Origin: an uncultured Clostridia bacterium
Lineage (GTDB): Bacteria; Bacillota; Clostridia; TANB77; CAG-508
Length of the DNA: 64,000 bases
Direction of reading: 5' to 3'
Assembly: GCA_934120395.1 (NCBI GenBank)
Contig: CAKOTZ010000002.1
Coordinates: 33,645-97,644, forward strand
Below, in pieces: positions 6,276-62,400 of the stretch. Within the stretch, counting starts at the first letter, position 1. Each line of letters opens with the position of its first letter. The position numbers were made by a program, and so were the translations under genes. Below the pieces are notes generated by a model. That model worked only from the letters and a program-made list of their open reading frames with translations, ran no database searches and was not told where the DNA came from.

Positions 6276-7136
6276 GTGTTAAAATCATTTTGTATAAAAA
6301 CCAATAATTCATCTATTATAGATTATCTATTAAGTACTTTCAAAAAGGATACACCAGAGAATTTTTATTTATCTAAAAATAGTTTTAAAATATATGACAA
6401 TGTTATTTTTCATTATGTTGGTAATTCTGAGGAATTATTTTACGATTATGTTTCTGAATGCTTAAAAAATGTAATTATTAGATTTTATGAACCCAAACTA
6501 TTTTCCAATTTAATTAATTATAATTATTTTTATTTTTCTGATTCTGAAAAGAAATTGATTTTAGATTCTTGTATTGATATTTTGTTAGAAGAGGATAATC
6601 ATAATGTGTTTGAAAGAAAAAAAGTTGCATTCTATCTTTGTAAAGAATATGTGAAAGAAAATAAAGCTGTTATTTTAGATGGATTAGTACATTTTCGCTT
6701 GAAGGAATATATTAATATTTTGGATTCTATTGTTGAATCTTGCGTTAATAGCTATATTATTGAAAAAGAATATATGGAGTTTGTTGATTTACTAAAATAT
6801 TACATTGATTCTAAATCCTCTTCTAATGAAATTTTACATTTAATTTACTTTAATCAAGAATCTATATTACTAGATAATGAAAAAAATGTGATACCTTTTG
6901 ACTCTGACATTTATAATGCCAAATATCTCTCTGATATCACATTTTCTTCAAATGATTATTGTTTAAATACCTTGCTTAACATTCTTCCAAATAAGTTATA
7001 TATACATTTATTAGATGAGGTTGAAGATGAATTTATTAATACCTTAAAATCTATTTTTGGGAAAAGGGCTATTGTTTGTATAGATTGTAAAATGTGCCAA
7101 TATTATAAAACTCAAAGACTTATCACCAAAAAATAA
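6276..7136 (+). CDS. Hypothetical protein, possibly YtxC-like sporulation protein; GTG start
   Basis: 286 aa, Cys-rich C-terminus (CIDCKMCQYY). RBS GGAAGGAG 9 nt before the GTG at 6276. Weak resemblance to the YtxC-like family. Confidence 0.4.
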   Translation: MLKSFCIKTNNSSIIDYLLSTFKKDTPENFYLSKNSFKIYDNVIFHYVGNSEELFYDYVSECLKNVIIRFYEPKLFSNLINYNYFYFSDSEKKLILDSCIDILLEEDNHNVFERKKVAFYLCKEYVKENKAVILDGLVHFRLKEYINILDSIVESCVNSYIIEKEYMEFVDLLKYYIDSKSSSNEILHLIYFNQESILLDNEKNVIPFDSDIYNAKYLSDITFSSNDYCLNTLLNILPNKLYIHLLDEVEDEFINTLKSIFGKRAIVCIDCKMCQYYKTQRLITKK

Positions 7137-7138
7137 AC

Positions 7139-7474
7139 CTAATTATTATCTAATCCGCCTCTAATATTATAAACGTTTTCGTAACCCATTTTTTTAAGTG
7201 TAGCTTCCGCCTTTTTGCTTCGTCCGCCGTATTGGCAATATACTATTATTAAGGTTCTTTTATCTGGTACTATGCTAAAAATTTTTGAGCCTAGTTCATA
7301 TAGTGGCAATGATATTGCGCCCTCAAGATGATATTCATTATATTCTTGAGGGCTTCTTACATCTATTAAAACTGCTGTTCTATCTTGGCTTAGTATGTGT
7401 CTTGCTTCTTGCAAGTTTATGTCGTTTGCACTTGTTCTATACATACGATATCTTATTTTGTCCAATATTTTCAT
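7139..7474 (-). CDS. Rhodanese-domain sulfurtransferase
   Basis: LIDVRSPQEYNEYHLEGAISLPL...VYCQYGGRSKKAEATLKKMGYENVYNIRGG. Active-site Cys in a CQYGGRS loop. Confidence 0.85.
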   Translation of the reverse strand: MKILDKIRYRMYRTSANDINLQEARHILSQDRTAVLIDVRSPQEYNEYHLEGAISLPLYELGSKIFSIVPDKRTLIIVYCQYGGRSKKAEATLKKMGYENVYNIRGGLDNN

Positions 7475-7602
7475 TGTGTGTCGCCTCCTTTTTAGGCATT
7501 AATGCCTAATATAGTATATGAAGGCGTGAGTATTTTGTCACAGTATGGTTTTATAATTAACTTGCAATATACTAAACTATTATTTCCCACATAAATAATT
7601 TT

Positions 7603-8508
7603 TTATAGTAATTTTGATTTTAGTAATATTACAACCGGTCGAACATAGTTTTTGTATGTCTTCCAGCCATTACTTCCTGGGTCAGCTCCGCTTGCAACAC
7701 TTCCTTTATACTCTTGTGCTATTAAAGCTGTAACACTGTTTCCACTTACTCCATATACCTTATTGCTCCCATAATTATCATTAAGCCAATATACAGCTCC
7801 AATATTTCTATAGCTTGCTGCAACTCCTTCTGCTTCTGCTTTTGTTAAAAGTCGTCCACTACCTCCTAAGTTGCTCCCAAATGAGCTTGCTTGACTTTTT
7901 GCGTCACCCCAATTTGCACTTCCTATAGTTGTTTTACATAGCAATGTTACATTAGTTCCATCATCTCCTATTACATAAAAATCATATCCTCCAACGCTTA
8001 CTGTTTCTCCATTTGAATACGTTGTTTTTTTGTTTACCTTTAATGTATACTCAACTGACTTCTCTTTATATTCTTTTGTTCCTGCACTTGTTACTTTTAT
8101 TATAACAGTTTCATCTACATTCTTTGGTGTTACTGTTATTTTATTTCCGCTTATAGTAGCTGTTGCAATATCTTCGTTTAATGTTTTTACGCTTAAATCT
8201 CCTCCACTTATATTTTTTATTACGTCAAATGTTATTGTATTCGGATAAGTACATTCTCCACTTGTTGCTGAAAGTTCTATTTCTCCTTCTTTTCTATTTA
8301 ATAAATCAAAGTATTCTTCTACTTTATTTAACAAATTTTGTTCATTTGTTGCCTTTTCTTGATATTTATCAACACTAGACTGTGCCTTGTTAATTAATCC
8401 ATTCTCTCCTAGCAACATTGACAAACTCACTCCTGCTAGAATTAGCAAAACAATAATTGTAATTATCAATGCTACCAATGTGATTGCTTTGTTACTTTTC
8501 AAGTTCAT
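7603..8508 (-). CDS. Pilin-like (class-III-signal-like N-terminus) surface protein, short paralog 1, with Ig-like domain
   Basis: N-terminus MNLKSNKAITLVALIITIIVLLILAGVSLSMLLGENGLINKAQSS resembles a prepilin leader plus hydrophobic helix. aa 1-235 are near-identical to the gene at 10770-11645; the last ~65 aa diverge. RBS AAAGGAAAGAGG. Confidence 0.8.
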   Translation of the reverse strand: MNLKSNKAITLVALIITIIVLLILAGVSLSMLLGENGLINKAQSSVDKYQEKATNEQNLLNKVEEYFDLLNRKEGEIELSATSGECTYPNTITFDVIKNISGGDLSVKTLNEDIATATISGNKITVTPKNVDETVIIKVTSAGTKEYKEKSVEYTLKVNKKTTYSNGETVSVGGYDFYVIGDDGTNVTLLCKTTIGSANWGDAKSQASSFGSNLGGSGRLLTKAEAEGVAASYRNIGAVYWLNDNYGSNKVYGVSGNSVTALIAQEYKGSVASGADPGSNGWKTYKNYVRPVVILLKSKLL

Positions 8509-8605
8509 TTTTATACCTCTTTCCTTTGTATTTATACATAAAATTATAATTTTAGTTTATCCGTATATAATCAATATTATGTAATTCTATGTTAATTAGT
8601 TAACC

Positions 8606-8637
8606 GTATTTTATACTATTATTTTGAACTTGTAAAG
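8606..8637 (-). promoter_or_regulatory. Sigma-A-type promoter of pilin-like paralog 1
   Basis: Minus strand: TTTACA, 17 nt, TAAAAT (extended TATAAAAT). Conserved in all four modules. Confidence 0.55.
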
Positions 8638-8644
8638 TAAAATT

Positions 8645-8680
8645 GAAAAAAACTTACCTTTACATGGTAAGTTTTTTGTT
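8645..8680. terminator. Bidirectional rho-independent terminator hairpin (module A)
   Basis: gaaaaaaacttacctttacatggtaagttttttg: acttacc/ggtaagt stem, flanked by an A-run and a T-run. Confidence 0.65.
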
Positions 8681-8985
8681 CTTCGCTTTCTTTTCCGCGA
8701 TTTATCACAAATATCATTTTTTCCATTCGGTTCTTCCCACTGGAGCTGTAACATTGCTCCCGCAATTAACAGCTCTCAGCGGTCCCCACGGAAAACCTCA
8801 TTTCAAAAATATATTTGTTCTTCTCGCTAATGAGATGCTAATTTTTAAGCATTAAAAATGCCTCTTACTAGCCGTAAGAAAAATATTTGCACTCTCACGG
8901 AACGGCTAAATTTTCATATATTTTTGTGTAGGCGGTAACACGTATGAAAAAAAGCATAAAAAAATCAAGCAATTTCGTATTAATG

Positions 8986-10227
8986 CTACTTTAAATATAA
9001 TACAACTCTAAATCCAAGACCACAATCAGTTCCGGTTAAATTTCCATCACAATGCCTATAACAAACTGGATGAATATTTGATGGGTCACGGAAACTTCCC
9101 CCTCTAAAAACATGCTCTATTTCACTATTGCCAATCTCATCAGTATATTCCCAAAGATTTCCTGCTATATCATAAGTATGATACATTTCCGAAACTTTAC
9201 TTGCTCCTATTGTAAACAAAGTATATCTTTCTGTTTCACCTGTTATTTTATTTTTAAAATCTGTAATATACCATTTTGTATCATTAAGAGTTGCTGTAGC
9301 ACTTCTACCACTATACGATATTGAATTTAATCCGTAATTTCCAATTAGACCTGAATCGAACAAATCATTTTTAGAAAATATAATTCCACTTTCGTTAGTT
9401 TTTCCAATACATTTTTGTATCATTACGTCCCATTGGGTTCCTGAAATTAATTTACTTGACACTGTTTCGCTTTTTTCATACATTTTCTCTGCATTCTTTT
9501 TGCAAAATTCATAACTTATAAAATTCCAAGGTATCTTTCCTGCTTTTGATAACGGAATTCCATCAATATTATAACCCACATTACTTGTACTTAATACTGT
9601 TCCACTATATTCTATAATTTCATCAGCTAATCCAGCTTCGTATCTTCCTATATAAAAACCTCCGTACTTTTTTATTTGTTCAACTTCCTTTGTTGATATA
9701 CCACTAGTATCATAATTTCCTCCAATCATATAATTTGAACCCCAATCTGTTTTGTGATACTCTTCCTCTGTGCATGGAATCCATACAAATTGATTTCCTG
9801 CCAAGCTTGTCGTATATTCCCATGTTGTTTTGTCTATTTTTCCATCATAGGCATCAGCTGGGTCGTCTGATATGATTACTCCATTATCTAAATTTCCACC
9901 AACATAGTAAAAATTCTTAGGTACTGGTATTATATTTTTCTTATCATCAAGTACAGCATCTACTGCGTCTTTATTCCAGCCACCTGGCAAATCTACTTTT
10001 GTGCCTGGTGATTTCAGTTGTAAATCCATATAACTTTCTATACTGTTTAATAATTTTTGTTCATTTTCACTACTTTCTTTATATCTATTCACACTTGACT
10101 GTGCCTTGTTAATCAAGCCATTTTCTCCTAGTACCATTGATAAACTTACTCCTGCTAGAATTAGCAAAACAATAATTGTAATTATCAATGCTACTAATGT
10201 GATAGCTTTATTACTTTTCAAATTCAT
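8986..10227 (-). CDS. Pilin-like N-terminus protein with C-terminal FGE-sulfatase (SUMF1/DUF323)-like domain, long paralog 2
   Basis: Same N-terminus as paralog 1. C-terminus ...YDIAGNLWEYTDE...VFRGGSFRD...CYRHCDG...GLGFRVVLYLK carries FGE-sulfatase family motifs. The first ~170 aa are ~95% identical to the 12112-13368 gene. Confidence 0.8.
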   Translation of the reverse strand: MNLKSNKAITLVALIITIIVLLILAGVSLSMVLGENGLINKAQSSVNRYKESSENEQKLLNSIESYMDLQLKSPGTKVDLPGGWNKDAVDAVLDDKKNIIPVPKNFYYVGGNLDNGVIISDDPADAYDGKIDKTTWEYTTSLAGNQFVWIPCTEEEYHKTDWGSNYMIGGNYDTSGISTKEVEQIKKYGGFYIGRYEAGLADEIIEYSGTVLSTSNVGYNIDGIPLSKAGKIPWNFISYEFCKKNAEKMYEKSETVSSKLISGTQWDVMIQKCIGKTNESGIIFSKNDLFDSGLIGNYGLNSISYSGRSATATLNDTKWYITDFKNKITGETERYTLFTIGASKVSEMYHTYDIAGNLWEYTDEIGNSEIEHVFRGGSFRDPSNIHPVCYRHCDGNLTGTDCGLGFRVVLYLK

Positions 10228-10769
10228 TTTTATACCTCTTTCCTTTGTGTTTCTATATAAAATTATAATTTTAGCTTATCCATCTTTAATCAATATTATG
10301 TAATTCTATGTTAATTAGTTAACTGTATTTTATACTATTATCTTGAACTTGTAAAGTACAATTGAAAAAAACTTACCTTTACAATGGTAAGCTTTTGTTC
10401 TTCGCTTTCTTTTCCGCGATTTATCACAAATATCATTTTTTCCATTCGGTTCTTCCCACTGGAGCTGTAACATTGCTTTCGCAATTAACAGCTCTCAGCG
10501 GTCCCCACGGAAAACCTCATTTCAAAAATATATTTGTTCTTCTCGCTAATGCATTGCTAATTTTAAAACACTTGAATAAGTCTATCACTAGCCGAAGACA
10601 AAAATATATAAAATTTAAAAGTGAGTTCGACCTTGAAGCAGTTATTCACTACACAAGTTTAGAATGTGTTCAATAGAATTTGAAAAGGCTGTCTCTCAAG
10701 CGCCTTGGAGAACGGAACGGCTAAATTTTCATATATTTTTGTGTAGGCGGTAACACTGTAGTAAAAAAA
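10228..10769. repeat. Duplicated intergenic module B (carries a ~100-nt insertion relative to module A)
   Basis: Aligned with 8509-8985. The extra segment ...aaaatttaaaagtgagttcgaccttgaagcag...ctctcaagcgccttggagaacgg is shared with module C. Confidence 0.85.
10325..10357 (-). promoter_or_regulatory. Sigma-A-type promoter of pilin-like paralog 2
   Basis: Same TTTACA-N17-TAAAAT arrangement as module A. Confidence 0.5.
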
Positions 10770-11645
10770 CTACAATTTAGATTTAGAGATAACTACAACT
10801 GGGCGCACATATAATGGTCCAGTTCCACTACTCCTATCTATATAAAAATAGTTAATGAATTTATCATAATCAACATACCATGCACATTTAGAACCATTTG
10901 CATACCCGTAATAATCATTAAGCCAGTAATGTATTCCAATGTCGCGATATTTCACTGCAACCCCTTCTGCTTCTGCTTTTGTTAAAAGTCGTCCACTTCC
11001 ACCTAAGTTGCTTCCAAATGTACTTGCTTGACTTTTTGCACCGTTCCAATTATTACTACCTATAGTTGTTTTACATAGCAAGGTCACATTAGTTCCATCA
11101 TCTCCTATTACATAAAAACTATATCCTCCAACGCTTACTGTTTCTCCATTTGAATACGTTGTTTTTTTGTTTACCTTTAATGTATACTCAACTGACTTTT
11201 CTTTATATTCTTTTGTTCCTGCACTTGTTACTTTTATTATTACAGTTTCATCTACATTTTTTGGCGTTACCGTTATTGTATTTCCGCTTATAGTAGCTGT
11301 TGCAATATCTTCGTTTAATGTTTTTACGCTTAAATCTCCTCCACTTGTATTTTTTATTACATCAAATGTTATTGTATTTGGATAAGTACATTCTCCACTT
11401 GTTGCTGAAAGTTCTATTTCTCCTTCTTTTCTATTTAGTAAGTCAAAGTATTCTTCTACTTTATTTAACAAATTTTGTTCATTTGTTGCCTTTTCTTGGT
11501 ATTTATTCACACTAGACTGTACTTTGTTAATTAATCCATTCTCTCCTAGCACCATTGACAAACTCACTCCTGCTAATATTAAAAGTATAATTATTGTAAT
11601 TATCAATGCTACTAATGTGATTGCTTTGTTACTTTTCAAGTTCAT
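10770..11645 (-). CDS. Pilin-like surface protein, short paralog 3 (Ig-like domain, divergent C-terminal 65 aa)
   Basis: True start is MNLKSNKAITL at 11645, with the conserved RBS. The track's 22-codon upstream extension (MFRCEQNKTIILCRNTKERGIK) overlaps the leader and RBS. Confidence 0.8.
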   Translation of the reverse strand: MNLKSNKAITLVALIITIIILLILAGVSLSMVLGENGLINKVQSSVNKYQEKATNEQNLLNKVEEYFDLLNRKEGEIELSATSGECTYPNTITFDVIKNTSGGDLSVKTLNEDIATATISGNTITVTPKNVDETVIIKVTSAGTKEYKEKSVEYTLKVNKKTTYSNGETVSVGGYSFYVIGDDGTNVTLLCKTTIGSNNWNGAKSQASTFGSNLGGSGRLLTKAEAEGVAVKYRDIGIHYWLNDYYGYANGSKCAWYVDYDKFINYFYIDRSSGTGPLYVRPVVVISKSKL

Positions 11646-12111
11646 TTTTATACCTCTTTCCTTTGTGTTTCTACATAAAATTATAGTTTTATTTTGTTCA
11701 CATCTAAACAATATTATGTAATTCTATGTTAATCAGTTAACCGTATTTTATACTATTATCTTGAACTTGTAAAGTACAATTGAAAAAAACTCACCTTTGT
11801 ATGGTAAGCTTTTCGTTTCTTGACTTTCTTTTCCGCGATTTATCACAAATATCATTTTTTCCATTCGGTTCTTCCTAGTCGAAAGCAAAAATATATAAAA
11901 TTTAAAAGTGAGTTCGACCTTGAAGCAGTAATTCACTACACAAGTTTAGAATGTGTTCAATAAAATCTGAAAAGGCTGTCTCTCAAGCGCCTTGGAGAAC
12001 GGAACGGCTAAATTTTCATATATTTTTGTGTAGGCGGTAACACGGCAATAGACTAGAAAACACACAAATTCAATATATCAGCTTATGTTACTATTAATCT
12101 ACACATTTCCA
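11646..12111. repeat. Duplicated intergenic module C (terminator hairpin degenerate: actcacc/ggtaagc)
   Basis: Aligned with modules A and B. Lacks part of the central GC-rich segment but has the module-B insertion. Confidence 0.8.
11744..11776 (-). promoter_or_regulatory. Sigma-A-type promoter of pilin-like paralog 3
   Basis: Conserved TTTACA / TATAAAAT elements. Confidence 0.5.
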
Positions 12112-13368
12112 CTATTTTATATAAAGTGCAACTCGAAATCCGAAAGTACAAACCATATAAGAAACAGCGTAATTCCCCAAACGACAACATGCTGGACAAA
12201 TCTCTGAAACATCATAAGAAGAACCTCCTCGAAGAACCTTATAACCGCTCCCATGTCCTACTTCATCTGTCCATTCCCATACATTTCCTGCTACATCATA
12301 AACATGATATACCTCTGTGTCTTTACATGCTCCAGTTGTAAATTCTATACGTGTATTTTCCTTTATAGATGCATTTGTTTGTTTTTCTCCCCATTGCTTT
12401 ATATACCAATTATTTCCACTTTGAAATATTGTCGCTGACCTTCCTGTATATGTTAGACTATTATTATAATAATTTCCCCATTTGCTTGAATCTTTTATGT
12501 CTACTTCTGTAAATGCTAGTCCTTTTGTATTTGTTGTTCCCATAAATTTATTTAACATTACATCCCATTGCGTTCCTGTTATTAATCCACTCGTTACGCA
12601 ATCGTTATTCTCATACATTTTTTCTGCACTTGCTTTACTATTAGTATAACTAATATAACTCCATGGCAATTTTTCCGCTTTCGATTTTGGTATTCCTATT
12701 GAATTATATCCAGCAGGACTACTAACTCCATCGCTTATCTGTTCTTTTATATACTCTGCTATTCCATCTGCTAAGCCAGCTTCATATCTTGCTACATAAA
12801 AACCATTATATTTCTTTACCTTATCTATCTCAGCTTGATTTGGTCCTGTTTTGTCATATCCAACACCAACATACTTGCTTCCCCAATCTGTTTTGTGATA
12901 CTCTTCCTCTGTGCATGGTATCCATACAAATTGATTTCCTGCCAAGCTTGTCGTATATTCCCATGTTGTTTTGTCAATTTTACCATCATAGGCATCTGCT
13001 GAATTATCTGATATGATTACTCCATTATCTAAATTTCCACCTACATAATAAAAATTCTTAGGCACTGGTATTATATTTTTCTTATCATCAAGTACAGCAT
13101 CTACTGTGTCTTTATTCCAGCCATCTGGAACATCTATTTTTGTTCCTGGTGATTTTAGTTGTAAATCCATATAACTTTCTATACTGTTTAATAATTTTTG
13201 TTCATTTTCACTACTTTCTTTATATCTATTCACACTAGACTGTGCTTTGTTAATTAATCCATTCTCTCCTAGCACCATTGACAAACTCACTCCTGCTAGA
13301 ATTAGCAAAACAATAATTGTAATTATCAATGCTACTAATGTGATTGCTCTGTTACTTTTCAAGTTCAT
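12112..13368 (-). CDS. Pilin-like N-terminus protein with C-terminal FGE-sulfatase-like domain, long paralog 4
   Basis: True start is MNLKSNRAITL at 13368. C-terminus ...VYDVAGNVWEWTDE...VLRGGSSYD...FGFRVALYIK. The N-terminal ~170 aa are near-identical to paralog 2. Confidence 0.8.
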   Translation of the reverse strand: MNLKSNRAITLVALIITIIVLLILAGVSLSMVLGENGLINKAQSSVNRYKESSENEQKLLNSIESYMDLQLKSPGTKIDVPDGWNKDTVDAVLDDKKNIIPVPKNFYYVGGNLDNGVIISDNSADAYDGKIDKTTWEYTTSLAGNQFVWIPCTEEEYHKTDWGSKYVGVGYDKTGPNQAEIDKVKKYNGFYVARYEAGLADGIAEYIKEQISDGVSSPAGYNSIGIPKSKAEKLPWSYISYTNSKASAEKMYENNDCVTSGLITGTQWDVMLNKFMGTTNTKGLAFTEVDIKDSSKWGNYYNNSLTYTGRSATIFQSGNNWYIKQWGEKQTNASIKENTRIEFTTGACKDTEVYHVYDVAGNVWEWTDEVGHGSGYKVLRGGSSYDVSEICPACCRLGNYAVSYMVCTFGFRVALYIK

Positions 13369-13556
13369 TTTTATACCTCTTTCCTTTGTGTTTCTACATA
13401 AAATTACTGTTTTATTTTGTTCACATTTAAACAATATTATGTAATTCTATATTAATCAGTTAACCGTATTTTATACTATTATCTTGAACTTGTAAAGTAC
13501 AATTTAAAAAAACTTACCTTCAACATGGTAAGTTTTTTGTTGTTTTATATTTTTTC
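13369..13556. repeat. Partial module D (terminator, promoter and leader only)
   Basis: Contains the acttacc...ggtaagt hairpin (13512-13533), the TTTACA/TATAAAAT promoter (13466-13497), and the conserved leader and RBS. Confidence 0.8.
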
Positions 13557-14204
13557 CTATTCTTCATTTTCCTCAGCTTTTAACTCTAGTAGTTTTTTAT
13601 CAAAATGTAGTGCAGTTGCTGTAACTGTAAGTCCAAATACAAATAATGCAATTGGCATTGCTAAAGCATTAACTGGTATTCTAGCAATTGTATAAATACT
13701 TGCTAGCACTGCTTCTGCTGCAACAGATGTTACAATAGTCCATAATGCAACCTTCCAAAATGTTAATTTCCAATAACGAACCGCCATATATACAACAATT
13801 ATTGCAAGCACAATTAAACTTGGTACTATATAGTTTTTTACAATATTTTTTATTTCAATAGCAGGGCTTTTTATAATATTAATATCTGATACACTATATT
13901 CTAAAGAATACTTTTCATTAACCAACTGTATTAATTTTTCTAGTTGCTCATCAGATGCGGACTTTACCGTTATTGCTGCCATATCCTCAAAAATTTCTAT
14001 AGTTTGTACTCTTACATTTTCATTTTCAAATACTTGATTTGCTATTTCTTTTATTTCGTCTTTGTTTATACTTTTTCCAATATATATTTCTATTTTTTCA
14101 TTTTCACCATAAGCTAGTCCTAAATTAAAACCTTTTGTTACTCCCATAACAATTCCAAGAATGATTATTATAGTAACAATTCCATATAGTATTTTTTTGC
14201 TCAT
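13557..14204 (-). CDS. SecF-like protein-export membrane protein (short, divergent)
   Basis: 215 aa. N-terminal TM, soluble domain, then C-terminal TM bundle ...VYMAVRYWKLTFWKVALWTIV... This recalls SecF topology, and it sits beside the SecD-like gene. Confidence 0.4.
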   Translation of the reverse strand: MSKKILYGIVTIIIILGIVMGVTKGFNLGLAYGENEKIEIYIGKSINKDEIKEIANQVFENENVRVQTIEIFEDMAAITVKSASDEQLEKLIQLVNEKYSLEYSVSDINIIKSPAIEIKNIVKNYIVPSLIVLAIIVVYMAVRYWKLTFWKVALWTIVTSVAAEAVLASIYTIARIPVNALAMPIALFVFGLTVTATALHFDKKLLELKAEENEE

Positions 14205-14222
14205 TTATTTATCCTCCCATTT

Positions 14223-15536
14223 TTAATCTTTCAATAGATTTCTAACAATTAAATAATTGTATGCAGTTTCTATTATTAGTCCCCAGAATAGTGCTGTTCC
14301 AAAGCTTACCATTGGTAACCATGTAACAAAACAAAATACAATAGAAATTACATATAACGGAATTTGAGCTAAAGTCATTTTTAAAATATTATCATCCATT
14401 TTTTTGCTATTTGTATCTTTTGCCAATTTAGCTAAGAATACAAGTTCCATAATACCTGCTAGCAAAATTGCAAACATGCTTCCAATAGCTAGTGGTACAT
14501 TTGTAAAACGTATTAATAACATTACTATTGCAAAATAACCAACTAAGCTTATAGCAGCTAAAAGCCCATTCTTTTTGTAACGAATAATTAAATATAGCAT
14601 TGAAAGTACAACTAATACTACAGCTATTAAAACGATTCTATTTAATGCAGTACTATCAATTATAGGTGATACATATTGATTTTCTCCTGATGTATATACA
14701 ATTGGTAATGTTTGATTATTTAATATCATAGCAATATATGATGCTGTTGTTGCTGTATCACTAATTTCTGTGCTATCAGTACTAGCATCTCCCATTGGGA
14801 TTTGAATTTGTCCGTCAGATATTGTCTCTCCAAAATAAGTTGTTAATAATGTTTGGTCATCAATTTTTATTGTGATTGTCTTTTTAGTTTTTGTTCCATC
14901 CTCGCCTGTTGTTTCTATATATTCGTTTGTAACATCTTCTAATTTTTTAACGGCATCTTTATTAAATTTTAAATTCAAATAAACTGTAGTGCCTTTTTCA
15001 CTAGAATAGTACATAACTTGTGCTTTTTCTAAATCACTTTTGCTTAATAATACTTCTTTTGAATCTGTACCTATTATGTTAAAGTCTCCCTGCTCCATTA
15101 AGAATTGTAAAACATTATCTGTTGTAGTACTATCAGGCATATCCACGATTATTTTTCCATCTTCTTCGTTTACTCGTATATCGTATTCTTCAATTTTTGC
15201 TTCTTGCAATCTTTTTTCAATAATATCTTTACATAGTTTATAATTATCTGTATTTAGCACCTCAGCTGAATTTACAGTTTCTTTTGTCTCTTCACTGTTT
15301 TCTGTATTATCACTTGCTGTTTCGTCTGTACTTGCTTTATCACTTTTTTTCTCAGAAGTATCTACCTTAAATGTAATTAATCTTGACCCCTTCAACTCTT
15401 TACCTAAAGCATAATCAGGTAAAATATTTTTCATACTTCCCTTATCGTATTGATAAATTCCTACAAAAGCAATTAATGATACTAGTATAATTGCAACAAG
15501 TATTACTAGTATTTTTAAATTTTTTCTCTCTTTCAC
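14223..15536 (-). CDS. SecD-like protein-export membrane protein (divergent)
   Basis: 437 aa. N-terminal TM, a ~250-aa extracytoplasmic domain, and a C-terminal TM bundle with YLIIRYKKNGLLAAISLVGYFAIVMLL...IGSMFAILLAGIM. The pattern resembles the SecD core. Confidence 0.45.
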   Translation of the reverse strand: MKERKNLKILVILVAIILVSLIAFVGIYQYDKGSMKNILPDYALGKELKGSRLITFKVDTSEKKSDKASTDETASDNTENSEETKETVNSAEVLNTDNYKLCKDIIEKRLQEAKIEEYDIRVNEEDGKIIVDMPDSTTTDNVLQFLMEQGDFNIIGTDSKEVLLSKSDLEKAQVMYYSSEKGTTVYLNLKFNKDAVKKLEDVTNEYIETTGEDGTKTKKTITIKIDDQTLLTTYFGETISDGQIQIPMGDASTDSTEISDTATTASYIAMILNNQTLPIVYTSGENQYVSPIIDSTALNRIVLIAVVLVVLSMLYLIIRYKKNGLLAAISLVGYFAIVMLLIRFTNVPLAIGSMFAILLAGIMELVFLAKLAKDTNSKKMDDNILKMTLAQIPLYVISIVFCFVTWLPMVSFGTALFWGLIIETAYNYLIVRNLLKD

Positions 15537-15554: not shown

Positions 15555-16214
15555 TTATAATAATCTTGTATCATTTATTAATAACTCAAACCAAACATTT
15601 AAATATTTCGCCGCATATTTGCTCATCATAGTTCTTTCCATAAATATTTCAAAATAGTCAAGAACAGGGCAAATTTTTGTGTCTATAGTTAATTGTAAAG
15701 TAATAACTCGCTTTTCCTTATTTAATATTAATTTTGAATCTGTTACGGCATAATTTACTTTATCATGTATACCAAAACTTGCCATGTTTTGATTTCTTAC
15801 TCTGTTTCTATGCGCATCTGACTTATCTGCAATAATAAGTGCTGCTGAAATATCACTAACTGCTGTTCCTGTAGCTTCATCATGATTTCCAATAGCCATC
15901 ATAATTTCTACTCTTTCATTTATTGGCATACCCATTCTTTCTAAAATATGATACGCTAAAATAGCGCCATTATGAGCATGGTCTGTCCTATTAACACAGT
16001 TTCCAATATCATGCAAATAGCCAGCAATTCTAGCTAATTCCACTTCTCTTTCACTATATCCTAGCACTTCTAATATATTGCTTGCTCTTTCAGATACAAT
16101 AGTTATATGTCTAACAGAATGTTCTGTAAATCCAAGTGCATCAAGTTGCTTTTGAGCTCCCATAACTAATTCCTTAACTTCTGCATCATTTTTTACATCT
16201 TCTAAAGTAACCAA
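15555..16214 (-). CDS. HD-domain phosphohydrolase
   Basis: H...HD motif (LARIAGYLHDIGN...DHAHNGA). Confidence 0.7.
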   Translation of the reverse strand: MVTLEDVKNDAEVKELVMGAQKQLDALGFTEHSVRHITIVSERASNILEVLGYSEREVELARIAGYLHDIGNCVNRTDHAHNGAILAYHILERMGMPINERVEIMMAIGNHDEATGTAVSDISAALIIADKSDAHRNRVRNQNMASFGIHDKVNYAVTDSKLILNKEKRVITLQLTIDTKICPVLDYFEIFMERTMMSKYAAKYLNVWFELLINDTRLL

Positions 16215-16340
16215 GCTATACGCCTCCTAAATATATAAATCTGTTTAAGATTTTATATTAAATTAAAGAAAATAGCAACCATTTTTCGAAAAAAATAGTT
16301 GCTATAGCTGATAAATTTGTACTCTTTTCGGTTTATATTC

Positions 16341-16748
16341 TTATCTTTTGTTCCCACTATTTACACCAACAATTCCACCTATCATTCCTACAATAACGCT
16401 TAATACTATCATAATTATTGCGTTTGTATTTAATGTAAAACCTGTTCCTAAACTACTAGATGTTAAATATAATATAAACACATAAAAAAATCCAACTAAT
16501 CCACCATTTAAAAGGCCATTTTTAGTTAGCTTCAATGTACTAATTGTTGTACCCGCAAAAATACTTATTGCTACAATTCCTATCATAACGGGTACTATCC
16601 AATGTTCCGAAAAATTTGTGTATGTTATAATTATAGAAAAAATAAAAATAGCTACCAAAGTACTAATAATTGATATTGCAACACCTTTTATAAGCGACAT
16701 AAATGACTTGTTCATCTCAATACTACTACCTTCTAATACATTTTTCAC
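16341..16748 (-). CDS. Small polytopic membrane protein (TIGR04086/YrzE-like)
   Basis: 135 aa with four predicted TM helices and a Gly-rich C-terminus. Confidence 0.5.
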   Translation of the reverse strand: MKNVLEGSSIEMNKSFMSLIKGVAISIISTLVAIFIFSIIITYTNFSEHWIVPVMIGIVAISIFAGTTISTLKLTKNGLLNGGLVGFFYVFILYLTSSSLGTGFTLNTNAIIMIVLSVIVGMIGGIVGVNSGNKR

Positions 16749-27948: not shown

Positions 27949-28605
27949 TTATTCTTCATTTAAAGTATATTGACCAATATCAGGTTCATTAAAAACTGAA
28001 TCATCTACATTATCAAATTCATAATCATATTTATTTTCTGTATTCGTATAGCTACCTAGACATAATCCTGTTTCCTTTTCAATATACAAATCATTTCTTT
28101 TTGAATCATATTCATATAGAGAATATGGAGATAAGAAATTTGTTACCTTATAACAGTCCTTTCCATTATATTTAACATTTGTTATTATTGTTGGAATACC
28201 ATACATAAAATTTTGCCATTTATTTTCTGTTTTTAACATATCATTAATACCTATTGCCATAGATTTTGCAGCATTTAAGGTTACAGTTTTCGAATCAGCT
28301 GTCTCTATAAATCTGTCTATTCGTTCGCCATTATTGTACATTGACATTTTAATATTTTCATTGTCTTTATTTCTCTCTATTATTACTAATTCCTTATTTG
28401 ACTTTTTAAAATAATTAGTAGTTACTGTTACACCATTTTCTACTTTTGAAATTAAACTCATATGATAATTTTCACTGCTAATATATTTTCCAACTTTATT
28501 TTGCATTTCAGTAATAATCAGAAAATTCCTAACAGCATGAAGCAAAGCTAGCATAATTAGGATTATTAATATAATTCCTATTATTTTAAACATTTTTTTA
28601 TTCAT
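27949..28605 (-). CDS. Hypothetical secreted / signal-anchored protein
   Basis: Start at MNKKMFKIIGIILIILIML with RBS GGGGGAA. No recognisable domain. Low GC like the rest of the chromosome. Confidence 0.55.
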   Translation of the reverse strand: MNKKMFKIIGIILIILIMLALLHAVRNFLIITEMQNKVGKYISSENYHMSLISKVENGVTVTTNYFKKSNKELVIIERNKDNENIKMSMYNNGERIDRFIETADSKTVTLNAAKSMAIGINDMLKTENKWQNFMYGIPTIITNVKYNGKDCYKVTNFLSPYSLYEYDSKRNDLYIEKETGLCLGSYTNTENKYDYEFDNVDDSVFNEPDIGQYTLNEE

Positions 28606-28796
28606 ATCAAATTCCCCCTTTATTCTTATTATAATGATTGTAGTTTGAACTTGTATATAAATTCTCTTTGCTAATACATATATATATTTTACCATAATTT
28701 GTCGATTTAAGCAAATTATCCTGGCAAAAAGAAAAATAGAGTTTTTGAATTCTCAAAATCTCTATTTCCCTTTTAGCTTAATTACTCAAGCATATC

Positions 28797-29744
28797 TTAC
28801 TTGATACAAAGTACAACCCTAAATCCCACATATGGATAAATGCTACGGGCATCTTCAGCATGCCTAGATGCTGCTGAAAAACCTAATCCAGAATGAAAAT
28901 ACGCACCACCTCTAGTAATATGTCTTGCGCCAAATTTTCCGAAGCTTTCCTGCGTCCATTCCATTACATTGCCAGCTAAATCATAGATTCCATTTACTTT
29001 CCATTTTTCCCTGCTGCCAGTAAGCTCCATCTTGCTAGGTTCGTCACTAATCATTGACTTGTAATTTCCCCAGCCCATAGAATTTGAGGTGAAATCTGTC
29101 CTCTTCTTGGCTCCAGATTCTTCGATCCACTTACATACAGTATCATATTCGGCTCCATAGGTAAGATGACTTTTCACATCTTTGCTACGTTCAAACTTTT
29201 CAGCCAAATCTTCTGCCCTATGAAAGCTGACATCTACCATTGGCTTAACACCAGCAATTGAATGAATATTTCCATCATCTCCTAAAGACATATTATATGC
29301 CGAGATATAAAATCCTCCATGCTTTTTTACACTGGAAATTTGTGCTAATAACTCCGGATTAATGTTTTCATGGTATTTGGAAGGGGAAAAAATTAATCCC
29401 ATGCTGTTAACTCTTCCAAATTTTTCATCAAATACAATGCCATCCAAAGTTGCATTTGCACTTAAATCGCCAACAGGGACCCAGACAAAGCGACTTCCGT
29501 CACTCTCTCTTTCAATGGTATAACCACTGTTCCATTTTCCATCCAAGTATTTATAACCTGCCGGAATAATAGGCTTACTATATTTGCTTGAATAGCCCTC
29601 TGTTCTTGCTTCTCCCTTAACAGCATGAATCTCAACAATTTTATTTGTTTCACTCATATTGCTAAGCTTAACGCCTTCACCTGCAACAATTCTAATCCCT
29701 GTGAGATTCTTCATGTTTGCCTTATCAAGTTCATACCGTTTCAT
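28797..29744 (-). CDS. FGE-sulfatase (SUMF1/DUF323)-domain protein, cytoplasmic or anchor-less paralog of the pilin-like long proteins; GC-rich gene
   Basis: ...RFVWVPVGD...KKHGGFYISAYNMS...IYDLAGNVMEWTQE...ITRGGAYFHSGLGFS...VGFRVVLCIK. Collinear with the C-terminal domain of the 8986 and 12112 proteins. GC is visibly higher (~43%) than the surroundings. Confidence 0.8.
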   Translation of the reverse strand: MKRYELDKANMKNLTGIRIVAGEGVKLSNMSETNKIVEIHAVKGEARTEGYSSKYSKPIIPAGYKYLDGKWNSGYTIERESDGSRFVWVPVGDLSANATLDGIVFDEKFGRVNSMGLIFSPSKYHENINPELLAQISSVKKHGGFYISAYNMSLGDDGNIHSIAGVKPMVDVSFHRAEDLAEKFERSKDVKSHLTYGAEYDTVCKWIEESGAKKRTDFTSNSMGWGNYKSMISDEPSKMELTGSREKWKVNGIYDLAGNVMEWTQESFGKFGARHITRGGAYFHSGLGFSAASRHAEDARSIYPYVGFRVVLCIK

Positions 29745-59234: not shown

Positions 59235-59427
59235 ATTGCAATACAAATGCGCAACTTATAGCAATATTGCTATAGTTATTATAGCATTTATGCTATTCTA
59301 TGTCAAACTAATTTTTTATACCTCTTCCCCATATAATAGTTTTGCATAAAACAAGATTTTTGTGCAAGACCAAGAGAAGGAAGCTTCTCTTCGTCTTGCT
59401 ATAATAAAACAAAGGGAGGAAATTATT

Positions 59428-62400
59428 TTGGATAAGAAAAAAATAATATCATCAATAACATTAGCTGGAATGTTGGCAACAAGCGTTGCAGGTTCTGGAG
59501 TATTTGCTGCAGAAACATCTGACCCAGCAACAAAAGCATTAGGAGAATACTCAAAATTAATCACAGGAAAAGTAGCAGTTCCTTTCATATTACAATCTGA
59601 AACAGATAGAGTAACAGGAAAAGACGTAAAAGCTTCTTTCAAAAATGCAACAACATTTACATTCAATTCATCAGCATTAACAGATGAACAAGTATTAACT
59701 ACAGGAGATGTAGTATATGTAAATGGAGAACCAAGAACAATAGTAATATATGGAGATACAAACTGTGATGGAAAAATCAATATAATGGATGCCGTTACAG
59801 TATTAAATCATGTAAAAGGAAAAACAACATTAACAGATGCAGCATTTGCAGCAGCTGATTTAAACAACAATGGTTCATTAAACATATTAGAAGCAACTGG
59901 AGTATTAAATGTTGCTAAAGGTAAAGCTGATTACCAAAACATTGCAACAGCTCCTACTGTTGAAGTTTCTGTATTAAAAGATGTTGAAATTAGTTCTGGT
60001 AAAATTAAATTAACATTTGACATGAATCCAGATGGATATTCATATAAATTATCTAATAAAGATGGAAGAGTAAGTGGAACAATAATTACAGATTCAAAGA
60101 AGGACACTAATACAGGTTTATATGTAAAAGAAATTTCTGCAGCAACAATGAATAAAAATGACAATGATTATACAATTGCAATATTAGATAAAAATGGAAA
60201 TGAAATTGCATCAAAAACATTTACATATAGAGAAATAAAACCCGTTACAGCAATAGATGCTGGTAAGGGAATTGGTTCAGAAAATGTAAAAGCATTTTCT
60301 GTAAAAGTAAATTTGACAAATTACAATGAGGTTGCTACAAAAGTATTAGCAACATTAAGTGATGGAGAAAAAACAATTGAAACAACAGCTAATTTACCAG
60401 CTAATACAGTTGCAACAGAATTAAATTTTGGAGATGTTAGTGCATTAAAAGATGATGAAAATATAAAAATTAAAACAAAAATTGTTGATGCTGATGGAAA
60501 TTACATTGAGGATACTTTAGATAAAAAAATCATAAAAAAAGTAGAAGCTCCTAAAATATTTGTAGAAAGTACTAGCCGTACAGGAACAAATACTGGAAAA
60601 GTAACTATTAAAAAGACAGCTGCAGACACAGTATATGTAATAGCTAAAAAAGCTGGAGAAACAGCACCAACAGTTGCTGAATTAAAAGAGAGTGCAAATA
60701 AAATTGAACCTACAGATACATTCGCTAATGTTAATATAACAGGCGATGCATACAAAGTATATGTGTTAGCTGTAAATCCACAAGGTACACCTTCTGAAAT
60801 TGTTGTAGCTGACATTGCTTCTTCAACAGCAGAAAAACTAACAAATGTTACAAATCTAAAGATGGATGCAACAAATGGTGTAGCAACATGGAAAGATACT
60901 AATACTAATAAGGTAACCGGATATACAGTACAAATATTAAAAGGTAGTGAAATAATTAAAGAAACAACTGTAAATGAAGCCAAATATGATATTTCCTCAA
61001 TTGCTAAAGAAAACGGAGATGCTACTTATACAGTTAAAGTAAGAGCAAATGGTGATAATACTACAACAGCTAATTCAGAATATGAAACTGCAAAAGGTAG
61101 TGGTTATATAGTAGATCCATTAGAGGTTACTGAAGCAAAATTTGTAGAAGGTATAGTATCATGGAAAGATGTTGATGCTAAAGCAGCTGAAAAAGTAGTT
61201 GTTAAATTATATAAAGTAACTGAAATGAAGAGTGCTGCAGAGATTAAAGATAAAAAATTAGTAAAAGAAGTAAATTGTGCTAATAACACTTATTCATATG
61301 ACATGAATTCTGTAATGAAAGCAGAGGGAAATGGAAGATATGTTGCAACTGTTACTTTAATAGCAAAGGCAGATGAAGCTGAAGTTGATTCTGATGAAAC
61401 TATTGCTACAGGAACATATTATATTGCACCTGCTGTAACAAATGTAAAAGCCACAGCAACAGATAATACTATTACTGTAAGATTTGCTCCAATAGATAAT
61501 ATTGTTGGATTAGATGAAAATTACAAATTAGTATATAGTTCTTATAATGAATCAGATGATACTTGGAGCAGTGAAAATGAGGTTACAATTTCAACAACAG
61601 CAAGCGATGAAAATGATAAAAAAGAATTTACAATAACTAATGCTACAGCTTCTACAAAATACAAATTTAGTATTCAAACACGTAAAGGGACAACTGTTTT
61701 AGCAGAAACATCTACTATGGAAGTTAGCACAAGTGCAACATTAGTTAAAGGCTTAAATGATTATTATACTTTTAAAGATATTTCAGCTAAAAATGCTAAA
61801 TTAGAGACTGATAAAACACTAGGAATTAATTATGAAGGCGAATTGATGATTAAACGCCCTTCAACTACTGCTGCTGAAAATGTTGATACAGCTCCTAATG
61901 CTGCTGAAATTAAATCAGTTATTAAAATGTTAAAAGATGGAGACAAAATTTTAATTGATGCAAATGGAAAAGTAAGTGCAATTGAAATAACTGCAAGTAG
62001 TAGTGTTGATAGAACTGTTAACCTTGGAACTGCTGTAAAAGATGCTGCATTAACAATTAAAGCAAAGGCAAATTATAATGTAATTGTTAATGGTGAAGTT
62101 AAATCAGTTACAGTAGAAAAAGTTACAGGTGAAACTTCTGAAGGAAAAGCTGATTTAGTTGGTTTAACTGTTACAGATAAAGTAACTGTAGAAGATGCAA
62201 CTGTTGATGTAAAAGCTGGAACTACAGTAAATGCGAAAAATGCAACAATAAATGGTGTATTTATTAAGTCAGAAAAAACAAAAGCTCCAGATACTAAAGT
62301 AGTAGTACCAACTGAATTAGTTGCAAACTCAGCTAATGAATTAGCAATTAAAGCTGATAATACAACAACAGTTACTTTAAAAGCTGATGCTGATAAAACT

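Follow-up and report, generated by a model that had tools for sequence, protein, structure and literature searches.

The window analyzed here, a 64-kb stretch of DNA from an uncultured, spore-forming gut Clostridia bacterium, carries a tandem array of four genes on its minus strand. In the order of the array these are long B (12112–13368; 418 aa), short B (10770–11645; 291 aa), long A (8986–10227; 413 aa), and short A (7603–8508; 301 aa), all four ORFs being present where the initial annotation had placed them. Long A is a paralog of long B, and short A of short B. Long B combines a pilin-like helix at its N-terminus with an FGE/C-type-lectin-like domain; short B has, besides a pilin-like N-terminus, both an Ig-like and a C-terminal domain. 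The two-gene units, each comprised of a long and a short gene, are collinear with a spacing of 3137–3141 nt. Because an independent metagenome contig (L001) has the same four units at 99.9% identity across 20 kb, the arrangement is not an assembly artefact.

The four array genes are independently transcribed units, each with its own promoter (TTTACA-17-TAAAAT), RBS, start codon, and intact full ORF. The sigma-70-type promoter of long B lies at 13468–13496 (minus strand), and alignment identified identical modules on the same strand at 11745–11773, 10327–10355, and 8608–8636. Each promoter sits behind a terminator hairpin; hairpin, promoter, and leader together form a conserved block, common to all four genes, which begins ~175–230 nt upstream of each ATG, a start that the initial annotation had missed. 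Downstream of short B, a conserved 3′ element of 388 nt (10366–10753, minus strand) ends in a terminator hairpin. This element is full-length, and alignment revealed deletion variants of it on the minus strand after long A (292 nt; 8647–8938) and after long B (257 nt; 11784–12040). Each gene is a self-contained unit, the 5′ module of which comprises the terminator hairpin, the promoter and leader (near-identical among the genes), and an N-terminal helix resembling that of type IV pilins; within each gene type, this module extends a further 120–190 codons.

The class III signal peptide has a Gly at position −1, an N-methylatable residue at +1, a Glu at +5, and a hydrophobic helix. Similar to type IV pilins, pseudopilins, and Com pilins, which have this signal, the array proteins begin with a short basic leader and a hydrophobic helix (MNLKSNKA/ITLVALIITIIVLLILAG). 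The leader is followed by the motif [GA]-[IV]-T-L-[IV]-x-L and a hydrophobic stretch of ~20 residues, and the helix is predicted to be long. In contrast to the conserved Gly-1 and Glu5 of type IV pilins, the array proteins have Ala at both positions in this species; relatives have Gly at −1. Matches to Pfam N_methyl (E 0.03–0.08) and the NCBIfam scores were below their cut-offs, and the Geopilin profile (Geobacter pilin domain 1) was matched weakly (E 0.024). No prepilin peptidase or pilus assembly genes were found among the window ORFs scanned.

The four genes are members of a very large family that lacks annotation and whose arrays are dispersed around the chromosome. Long B gave more than 4700 matches and short A 1379, none of them named and several per contig, and arrays adjoin dnaK-secDF, spoIIIA-polC, valS-aspS, spoIVA, and dnaE. 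Members have the type-IV-pilin-like N-terminus in common and differ in their C-terminal domains.

For long B, the C-terminal domain has a Pfam FGE-sulfatase match (E 4e-5), and the top Foldseek matches of its AF2 model (pLDDT 90.8) are TvpA (E 1e-5), Mtd, and TaqVP, all of which are variable proteins of diversity-generating retroelements (DGRs). The AF2 model of short A (pLDDT 86.4) has an Ig-like domain at residues 75–160, and the C-terminal domain of short B has a weak DUF6273 match. From these profiles and models, we infer an FGE/C-type-lectin fold for the long type and an Ig-like plus a DUF6273-like domain for the short type. The 3′ parts may therefore encode surface-exposed ligand-binding domains, and the genes are probable surface lectins. 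The suggestion that the C-terminal parts act as specificity domains is thus plausible, given that the long type has a fold close to that of the DGR variable proteins. If correct, the array would equip the cell with a set of binding specificities built on a common expression and export platform.

The last 48 codons of long B (12115–12258, minus strand) resemble a DGR variable region (VR), in that they avoid adenine and are hypervariable across the family; the initial annotation had overlooked this feature of the long genes. In long B, A occupies 9 of 26 4-fold sites in these codons vs. 97 of 132 elsewhere in the gene (p 4e-4). The footprint is weak in long A (A3 of 8/18 in the 3′ end vs. 80/124 elsewhere, not significant), and is hardly seen in the short genes. 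Across the long-type family, the last 48 codons differ from the rest at 4-fold sites in A (0.35 vs. 0.75) and T (0.46 vs. 0.13), while C and G are unchanged, and adenine avoidance sets in sharply 48 codons before the stop. Additionally, Arg switches from AGR to CGN codons, with AGR used for 29% of Arg in the C-terminal segment vs. 90% elsewhere. High amino-acid entropy is confined to alignment columns 390–433, between the fixed scaffold residues R, G, G, C, R, and GFR. Variable codons end in T or C (NNY) in 73% of cases, and 94% of the residues at these codons belong to the AAY-derived set of 15, vs. 75% in other variable columns. The adenine footprint also occurs in homologs of 45–49% identity from other species.

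These features suggest, by a modest balance of the evidence, that the long type ends in a VR of 44–48 codons that is, or once was, written by a DGR elsewhere in the genome. The long-type proteins resemble DGR variable proteins, their best structural matches, with a hypervariable stretch of the last ~45 residues on the scaffold R-x-RGGS-x...C-x-R...GFR, and the long genes likewise have adenine-avoiding scaffold codons and NNY variable codons. For TvpA of Treponema denticola, seven dispersed paralogous targets are known. In that organism, TvpA and the paralogous DGR targets are scattered around the chromosome, and both remote DGR targets and FGE-type CLec1 VRs have been documented (PMC5758913). 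The array family similarly consists of many chromosome-scattered paralogs. Unlike those targets, the array genes are tandem, with 5′ halves under concerted evolution, and they begin with a pilin-like helix, where DGR variable proteins have a lipoprotein signal or a phage tail domain.

Also in contrast to known DGR systems, the surroundings of ten arrays yielded no reverse transcriptase, Avd, or template repeat. No reverse transcriptase occurs among the window ORFs scanned, and the Pfam lists within 10 kb of arrays contain no RVT family in L001, L003, L016, L017, L020, L021, L143, L144, or L148-151. Avd was found neither in the 64-kb window, nor within 10 kb of the nine other arrays, nor in scans of the collection. 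Scanning the window and every family locus for A-biased repeats gave no template repeat, and pattern and peptide searches of the collection found nothing related. The VR-like regions are identical between the window and L003, between L017 and L018, and within the P0107 cluster, so that current hypermutation is not visible. The C-terminus might alternatively have no relation to a DGR, its hypervariability and scarcity of adenine arising from ordinary diversifying selection on binding loops together with a local compositional or RNA-structure constraint. This is a real possibility, though a doubtful one: the missing reverse transcriptase and template repeat in the window, the array surroundings, and the collection scans fit it, as do the static VRs, and the third positions of the variable codons vary too, with some K, E, Q, and M residues present. 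Selection at the protein level, however, predicts none of the synonymous effects, namely the exchange of A for T with C and G unchanged and an abrupt onset, the switch in Arg codons, and the NNY bias that accompanies the AAY-type residue repertoire; the proximity of the fold to TvpA and Mtd is likewise unaccounted for. A VR written by a DGR would explain the extreme divergence of the very C-terminus, but not the identity boundary at codon 162 of the long genes.

In 30-residue windows, the proteins of the long pair have 87–100% identity up to about residue 165 and 23–63% afterwards, and those of the short pair 83–100% up to about residue 240 and 10–53% afterwards; short A ends in YVRPVVILLKSKLL and short B in YVRPVVVISKSKL. 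At the DNA level, maximum chi-square analysis placed the breakpoint of the long pair at CDS nt 488 (codon 162; window positions 9740 and 12881), where identity falls from 92.0 to 58.3%. The breakpoint of the short pair is at CDS nt 691 (codon 230; window positions 7818 and 10955), with a fall from 92.6 to 44.7%. For the long and the short pair alike, none of 1000 permutations reached the breakpoint statistic. The dS increases about fourfold across the boundary in both pairs (long, 0.29 to 1.22; short, 0.27 to 1.30), which argues for recombination and not constraint alone. Protein windows, DNA breakpoints, and dS thus all confirm the sharp intragenic identity boundary described in the initial annotation; its description of the 5′ parts as 95% identical or near-identical is correct for the proteins, while the DNA identity is ~92%.

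The 5′ conversion tract of long B, as delimited by blastn, the breakpoint, and the dS of 0.29, spans 12881–13544 (minus strand) and includes the terminator hairpin, promoter, leader, and codons 1–162; it aligns with 9740–10402 at 92% identity (blastn). We compared the array with that of a related strain, L003. There, the long paralogs do not differ (0 per 100 nt) in any window over CDS nt 21–320, a region in which the long paralogs of the window strain differ by 4–9 per 100 nt. At sites 191, 194, 197, and 233, variants are common to both long paralogs within each strain. The orthologous 3′ halves differ between strains by 0–3 per 100 nt, except for one ~40-nt patch. Identity of the L003 paralogs in the 5′ part, together with nearly unchanged 3′ halves of the orthologs, indicates that conversion homogenizes the 5′ module; with the dS increase, it bears out the earlier proposal that the boundary is a signature of recombination or gene conversion.

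Frequent gene conversion between neighboring copies holds the 5′ module homogeneous, and the front halves of the four genes are near-identical because the genes copy these onto one another. Conversion tracts are ~350–700 nt long and end inside the ORF; beyond the tract end, the paralogs are old, with saturated dS, and stable between strains, hence the sharp identity boundary. Conversion also takes place between the long and short types, within the ~45 initial codons that the two have in common. Among the four genes the 5′ module forms a patchwork: over nt 1–135, short A has 4 differences from long B and 12 from short B. The pattern holds generally for arrays of the family, in which 11 pairs of array neighbors have 90–99% identity in the 5′ part (except 2 of the 11, at about 76–78%), 61–87% in the middle, and 41–72% in the VR. 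Several genes, namely the window pair, the L020 trio, and L017_3/4, match their array neighbor best in the 5′ part, while in the mid segment the best match is often from another array. L003 lacks both short genes, and the junctions fall inside the repeated 3′ elements; unequal recombination between such repeated flanks adds or removes whole gene units between strains. Taken together, an array of pilin-like lectin genes with a gene-converted 5′ module, old divergent 3′ domains, and turnover of units is the probable explanation for this locus.

The mosaic could also have begun with 3′ replacement from other family members. In its full form, this alternative supposes a recent tandem duplication of two genes, after which both 3′ ends were swapped from other family members and the 5′ parts were never homogenized. 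The equal 5′ dS of the two pairs fits one duplication event, the units are collinear and regularly spaced, and the mid segment of long B has its best match in another array (L020_2, 81%). Such a history is nonetheless unlikely, as it requires two independent 3′ replacements, each without a change in unit length, and the patchwork among long and short 5′ parts needs 5′ conversion in any case; furthermore, the sole dated event, from L003 vs. the window, is a 5′ homogenization.

The initial annotation proposed cassette-type diversification of the C-terminal ends. In the form known from pilE/pilS or vlsE, one or a few expressed genes would take C-terminal segments from silent donors by unidirectional gene conversion. 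The sharp boundary within the gene and the identical upstream modules fit this, the large family might supply donors, and the ~40-nt patch, located within the 3′ half of long B, sets apart strains that are otherwise 98.6% identical; a search for its donor found none. At this locus, however, the proposal is already largely refuted and we consider it very unlikely. The 5′ halves are the converted part, and the 3′ halves are stable orthologs between strains. The initial annotation had named constant C-terminal regions among strains as a refutation, and at the available time depth these regions are indeed largely constant; it is gene content that varies instead. There is no single expression site, since all four copies have a promoter, RBS, start codon, and full ORF. 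Silent C-terminal cassettes were not encountered either: blastn of the 3′ ends gave paralog matches only, with no promoterless 3′ copies in the 64-kb window. A gene fragment in L021 was considered as a silent cassette and rejected, being a frameshifted pseudogene.

A single old duplication without any recombination, the N-terminal half then being held by strong purifying selection while the C-terminal half evolved under relaxed or positive selection, would account for the lower dN/dS of the 5′ parts (0.10 long, 0.17 short) relative to the 3′ parts (0.39 long, 0.65 short) and for the conservation of the N-terminal 165 residues throughout the family, but it is refuted by the jump in dS itself and by the strain comparison, in which L003 paralogs are identical in a 5′ part where orthologs differ, and with the upstream non-coding DNA conserved equally it is hardly credible.

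Gene conversion of a 5′ module has counterparts in surface-protein families that undergo concerted evolution by the same process, including Neisseria opa, Helicobacter babA/babB, the Anaplasma msp2 flanks, and Mycoplasma vsp/vlp. As in the array, the promoter, leader, and signal region is near-identical among paralogs while the mature part diverges, and gene number varies by strain. In contrast to these families, neither phase-variable repeats nor invertible promoters were seen in the array, the tracts reach 160–230 codons into the mature protein, and the variable domains are of a lectin fold. The pilE/pilS system shares with the array a conserved pilin-like N-terminal helix, a variable C-terminal part, and gene conversion, but it has an expression locus and silent loci, whereas all array copies have promoters, and conversion in the array affects the conserved 5′ part, with 3′ parts that stay stable from strain to strain. 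Smaller differences between strains include a variable hairpin patch in the 3′ element after short B (window 10551–10599) and, in strain L001, a nonsense codon in short B at window position 11414.

The array at 7603–13368 consists of four minus-strand ORFs: long B (13368–12112, 418 aa), short B (11645–10770, 291 aa), long A (10227–8986, 413 aa), and short A (8508–7603, 301 aa). Housekeeping genes flank it on both sides; upstream are hrcA-grpE-dnaK-dnaJ, an HD protein, and two unannotated membrane proteins, and the downstream neighbor is a rhodanese gene. The DNA has a G+C content of ∼29%. Because an independent metagenome contig from a near-identical strain (L001) repeats this arrangement with 99.9% identity across 20 kb, the array is not an assembly artifact.

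The most fitting description of the locus is a single array from a large, unannotated family of pilin-like lectin genes. Comparison of the four proteins with Pfam, NCBIfam, and PHROGs returned no meaningful curated annotation for either type, and no named members occur among the database homologs or clusters, which number more than 4700 for long B and 1379 for short A, often with several per contig. Dozens of proteins of 170–520 aa share only their first 65–70 residues (75–90% identity) and differ in their C-terminal domains. Their genes form arrays of two to six or more at many sites on the chromosome, with housekeeping genes on either side (including dnaK-secDF, spoIIIA-polC, valS-aspS, spoIVA, and dnaE), and such arrays were seen in metagenomes, Hadza ones among them. 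The host bacterium is a spore-forming member of the Clostridia, and the closest species-level genomes to long B are uncultured Clostridia MAGs at only 46–49% identity, the remaining matches being unrelated FGE proteins. One six-gene long-paralog array, on a Hadza gut contig, also contains a ToxN-type toxin gene (type III toxin-antitoxin/abortive infection; L017:6626–7165).

The shared N-terminus, MNLKSNKA-ITLVALIITIIVLLILAG, resembles a class III (type IV pilin) signal, with Ala at position -1 (Gly in relatives) and Ala in place of Glu at +5; matches to the N_methyl and Geobacter pilin profiles are sub-threshold. The AlphaFold model of the long type (pLDDT 90.8) places an FGE/C-type-lectin-like domain after a long N-terminal helix, and its best matches among solved structures are the variable proteins of diversity-generating retroelements (DGRs) TvpA, Mtd, and TaqVP, with FGE and EgtB enzymes ranking lower. 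The short-type model (pLDDT 86.4) joins the same helix to an Ig-like domain and a C-terminal alpha/beta domain with only a weak match to DUF6273; its low-confidence loop coincides with the hypervariable stretch. The predicted lectin fold makes it plausible that the C-terminal parts are specificity domains, as the initial annotation had proposed. Elsewhere in the window, a further protein with an FGE-sulfatase domain (28797–29744, minus strand; 315 aa; Pfam E 8.5e-9) ends in GFRVVLCIK, is without the pilin-like N-terminus, and shows no 3′ adenine depletion (9/23 vs 37/94); the adjoining gene (27949–28695) encodes an unannotated 248-aa membrane-anchored protein.

The sharp identity boundary first noticed inside the paralogs is borne out by protein alignments and by a DNA breakpoint scan. 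In 30-residue windows, protein identity of the long pair is 87–100% up to residue ∼165 and 23–63% thereafter, and that of the short pair is 83–100% up to residue ∼240 and 10–53% thereafter, with both short proteins nonetheless ending in VRPVV..KSKL. A maximum chi-square scan with 1000 permutations placed the long-pair breakpoint at CDS nt 488 (codon 162; window 9740/12881), where DNA identity falls from 92.0 to 58.3%, and the short-pair breakpoint at CDS nt 691 (codon 230; window 7818/10955), where it falls from 92.6 to 44.7%. The observed statistic was reached in 0/1000 permutations for both pairs. Synonymous divergence (Nei-Gojobori dS) rises across the boundary from 0.29 to 1.22 in the long pair and from 0.27 to 1.30 in the short pair, a jump that differential purifying selection alone cannot yield. 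The codon-162 breakpoint falls within the lectin-like domain, at the end of the stretch that is conserved family-wide, and conversion tracts are expected to end where homology gives out. A long-type paralog on another contig (L021:4962–6210) is split into ORFs of 171 and 165 aa, and the first piece (P0171) ends in HKTDWGSQYVGGRI, at the same position as the 5′/3′ identity boundary of the window genes.

The conserved block common to all four genes begins not at the ATG but 175–230 nt upstream of it, and comprises a terminator hairpin, a TTTACA-17-TAAAAT promoter, a leader of ∼110 nt, a ribosome-binding site (AGGAAAGAGG), and the first ∼45 codons. Within the window, this 5′ module forms a patchwork that spans the four genes: over nt 1–135, short A differs from long B at four sites and from its counterpart short B at 12, and upstream variants cluster by neighbor, not by gene type. 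In other arrays, neighbors are 90–99% identical in the 5′ part (except two of 11 pairs, at ∼76–78%), 61–87% identical mid-gene, and 41–72% identical in the last 44 codons. In several genes, the 5′ part is most similar to that of an array neighbor, and the middle segment is often most similar to that of a gene in another array.

The long genes of the window strain were aligned with the two from L003, a related strain whose flanks are 98.6–99.2% identical to the window. Over CDS nt 21–320, the L003 paralogs show no differences in any 100-nt window, and those of the window strain show 4–9 per 100 nt. At sites 191, 194, 197, and 233, variants common to both paralogs within one strain are missing from both in the other. 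Past nt 470, orthologs differ between strains by 0–3 per 100 nt and paralogs by 30–50 per 100 nt. The current process is therefore gene conversion that homogenizes the 5′ modules, while the 3′ halves are old, stable orthologs; the family undergoes concerted evolution of its expression and export module. Gene conversion likewise accounts for the boundaries at codons 162 and 230. In a DUF1566-like branch of the family, two adjacent genes on L021 (7162–8106 and 8627–9580) are identical save for the extreme N-terminus, and in a 99.2%-identical strain (L022:1–663) the gene at the second position has a C-terminal half that is very different; this is a further recent conversion or duplication.

Strain-to-strain variation takes the form of gene content. 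Both short gene units are missing from L003, with junctions inside repeated 3′ elements, as expected for unequal homologous recombination. In L001, short B is a pseudogene through a GAA to TAA nonsense change at window 11414 (codon 78). The 3′ halves are constant bar one patch of ∼40 nt in long B (window ∼12490–12530; CDS nt ∼840–880), which reads GTTNTKGLAFTEVD in one strain and GKANQSEVIPSEMD in the other and outside which the long B genes are nearly identical; no donor of this patch was found among the sampled paralogs.

The repeated 3′ element, of up to 388 nt and ending in a terminator hairpin, is conserved downstream of almost every family gene in all arrays. A full copy of 388 nt lies at window 10366–10753 and variant copies at 8647–8938 and 11784–12040, all on the minus strand; others occur at L017:8845–9231 and at L144:13125–13511 and 16168–16556. 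Copy lengths cluster at 388, 300, 292, 257, 205, 155, and 94 nt. Nearly all internal-deletion variants, bar the most truncated, keep the E1 and E4 ends, which are mutually complementary over ∼45 nt in the consensus fold, and the full element folds more stably than shuffled sequence (MFE z = -4.9). A hairpin patch of ∼50 nt inside the element (window 10551–10599) is completely different in L001; beyond it, the two sequences differ over 20 kb by one nonsense and two other single-base changes. The version of this patch differs from copy to copy, and two base pairs in it change compensatorily; these are the only such pairs, the copies being too alike for covariation to support the fold. The homology that the element offers clearly feeds the unequal recombination by which gene units are gained and lost. 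The idea that a riboswitch or another known RNA accounts for the long intergenic regions was rejected, with no Rfam match at E ≤ 1 across window 6500–14500, the 3′ element included.

Several mechanisms of variation were weighed. Phase variation by an invertible promoter or simple repeats was discarded, as the terminator hairpins are the only inverted repeats in the array and no repeat tracts were seen. The initial annotation, which proposed gene conversion or cassette-type diversification of the C-terminal region, was right about gene conversion, as the dS jump and the homogenization in L003 attest; it missed both the direction and the mechanism, since it is the 5′ module that is being homogenized and cassettes do not diversify the 3′ ends. 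The 3′ halves are stable between strains, every copy in the window has its own promoter, ribosome-binding site, and intact ORF, and no promoterless copies of 3′ ends, and hence no silent C-terminal cassettes, occur within the 64 kb.

Past targeting by a DGR at the tip of the lectin domain is probable. Among long-type paralogs that are otherwise 90–95% identical, the last ∼44 residues are hypervariable within a fixed scaffold, R-x-R-G-G-S-C...C-x-R...G-F-R. Across 18 long-type genes, the composition of four-fold degenerate third positions switches abruptly 48 codons from the stop: A is 0.35 in the last 48 codons against 0.75 in the rest of the gene, T 0.46 against 0.13, C 0.07 against 0.05, and G 0.12 against 0.07. 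Arginine is encoded as AGR in 29% of cases there and in 90% elsewhere (14 genes). A GC-richer donor of the 3′ end was considered as the cause of this shift and set aside, as C and G at these sites are unchanged. The third base is T or C in 73% of variable codons, while A is the commonest (50%) in other variable columns, and 94% of residues at variable positions belong to the set of fifteen reachable from AAY, vs 75% in other variable columns. By design, the template and variable regions of DGRs avoid adenine at synonymous sites and use NNY for their variable codons, two traits that protein-level selection does not predict. The adenine footprint recurs in 45–49% identical homologs of other species and in the family's third, DUF1566-like branch. 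Among the window genes, it reaches significance in long B (A at 9/26 sites in the last 48 codons vs 97/132 in the rest), is weak in long A, and is essentially lacking from the short genes.

Published surveys document variable regions (VRs) of FGE-type CLec1 and of DUF1566 type, remote DGR targets, and seven dispersed TvpA paralogs in Treponema denticola (PMC5758913), and place G-type pilin domains among the rare VR-bearing domains (PMC11661182). No reverse transcriptase (RT), Avd, or template repeat (TR) was found in the window or within 10 kb of nine other arrays, and searches for a TR by blastn-short of the 3′ ends against the window and by an A-biased repeat scan of all loci were negative. 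The VR-scaffold pattern had no related match in viral contigs; a looser 17-mer returned 120 loci in metagenome contigs and 21 in viral contigs, all unrelated. A search with an N-rich pseudo-TR peptide recovered C-terminal gene fragments only, and a family-profile scan of viral contigs gave two weak loci, neither with a DGR. The VR-like segments do not differ from strain to strain, nor among samples taken from different hosts. Because RT, Avd, and TR were not found and the VRs are identical in this way, the DGR link is one that we infer. On balance we lean slightly toward past or remote DGR action on the long-type C-termini, and rate present activity lower. Such action would account for the extreme C-terminus being where divergence is greatest (41–47% DNA identity); it does not explain the boundaries at codons 162 and 230.

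For uncultured, spore-forming gut Clostridia, the family is apparently a major surface repertoire, and the locus shows how it is maintained: a shared, gene-converted module serves expression and export, the predicted lectin-fold specificity domains are old and stable, and whole gene units turn over between strains. The last 48 codons, adenine-avoiding and NNY-coded, suggest that DGR action reaches many dispersed Firmicutes targets that have no RT in their vicinity. If true, this would rank among the largest known multi-target DGR systems, or offer a clear set of fossil DGR targets, and DGR targets could be recognized from sequence alone when an assembly is without the retroelement. A bolder reading, which we consider improbable, would treat the dozens of pilin-like lectin genes, arrayed at scattered chromosomal sites in gut Clostridia, as one repertoire rewritten only episodically in trans by a single remote or phage-supplied DGR, with the conserved, highly structured ∼390-nt element serving as a cis target mark or in mRNA control and 5′ conversion holding all members to a single promoter and export chassis.

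On the strand opposite to the array, window 59362–62910 (plus) encodes a protein of 1182 aa that carries dockerin and fibronectin-III domains. GC and AT skew flip sign over 59–63 kb, probably due only to gene orientation.
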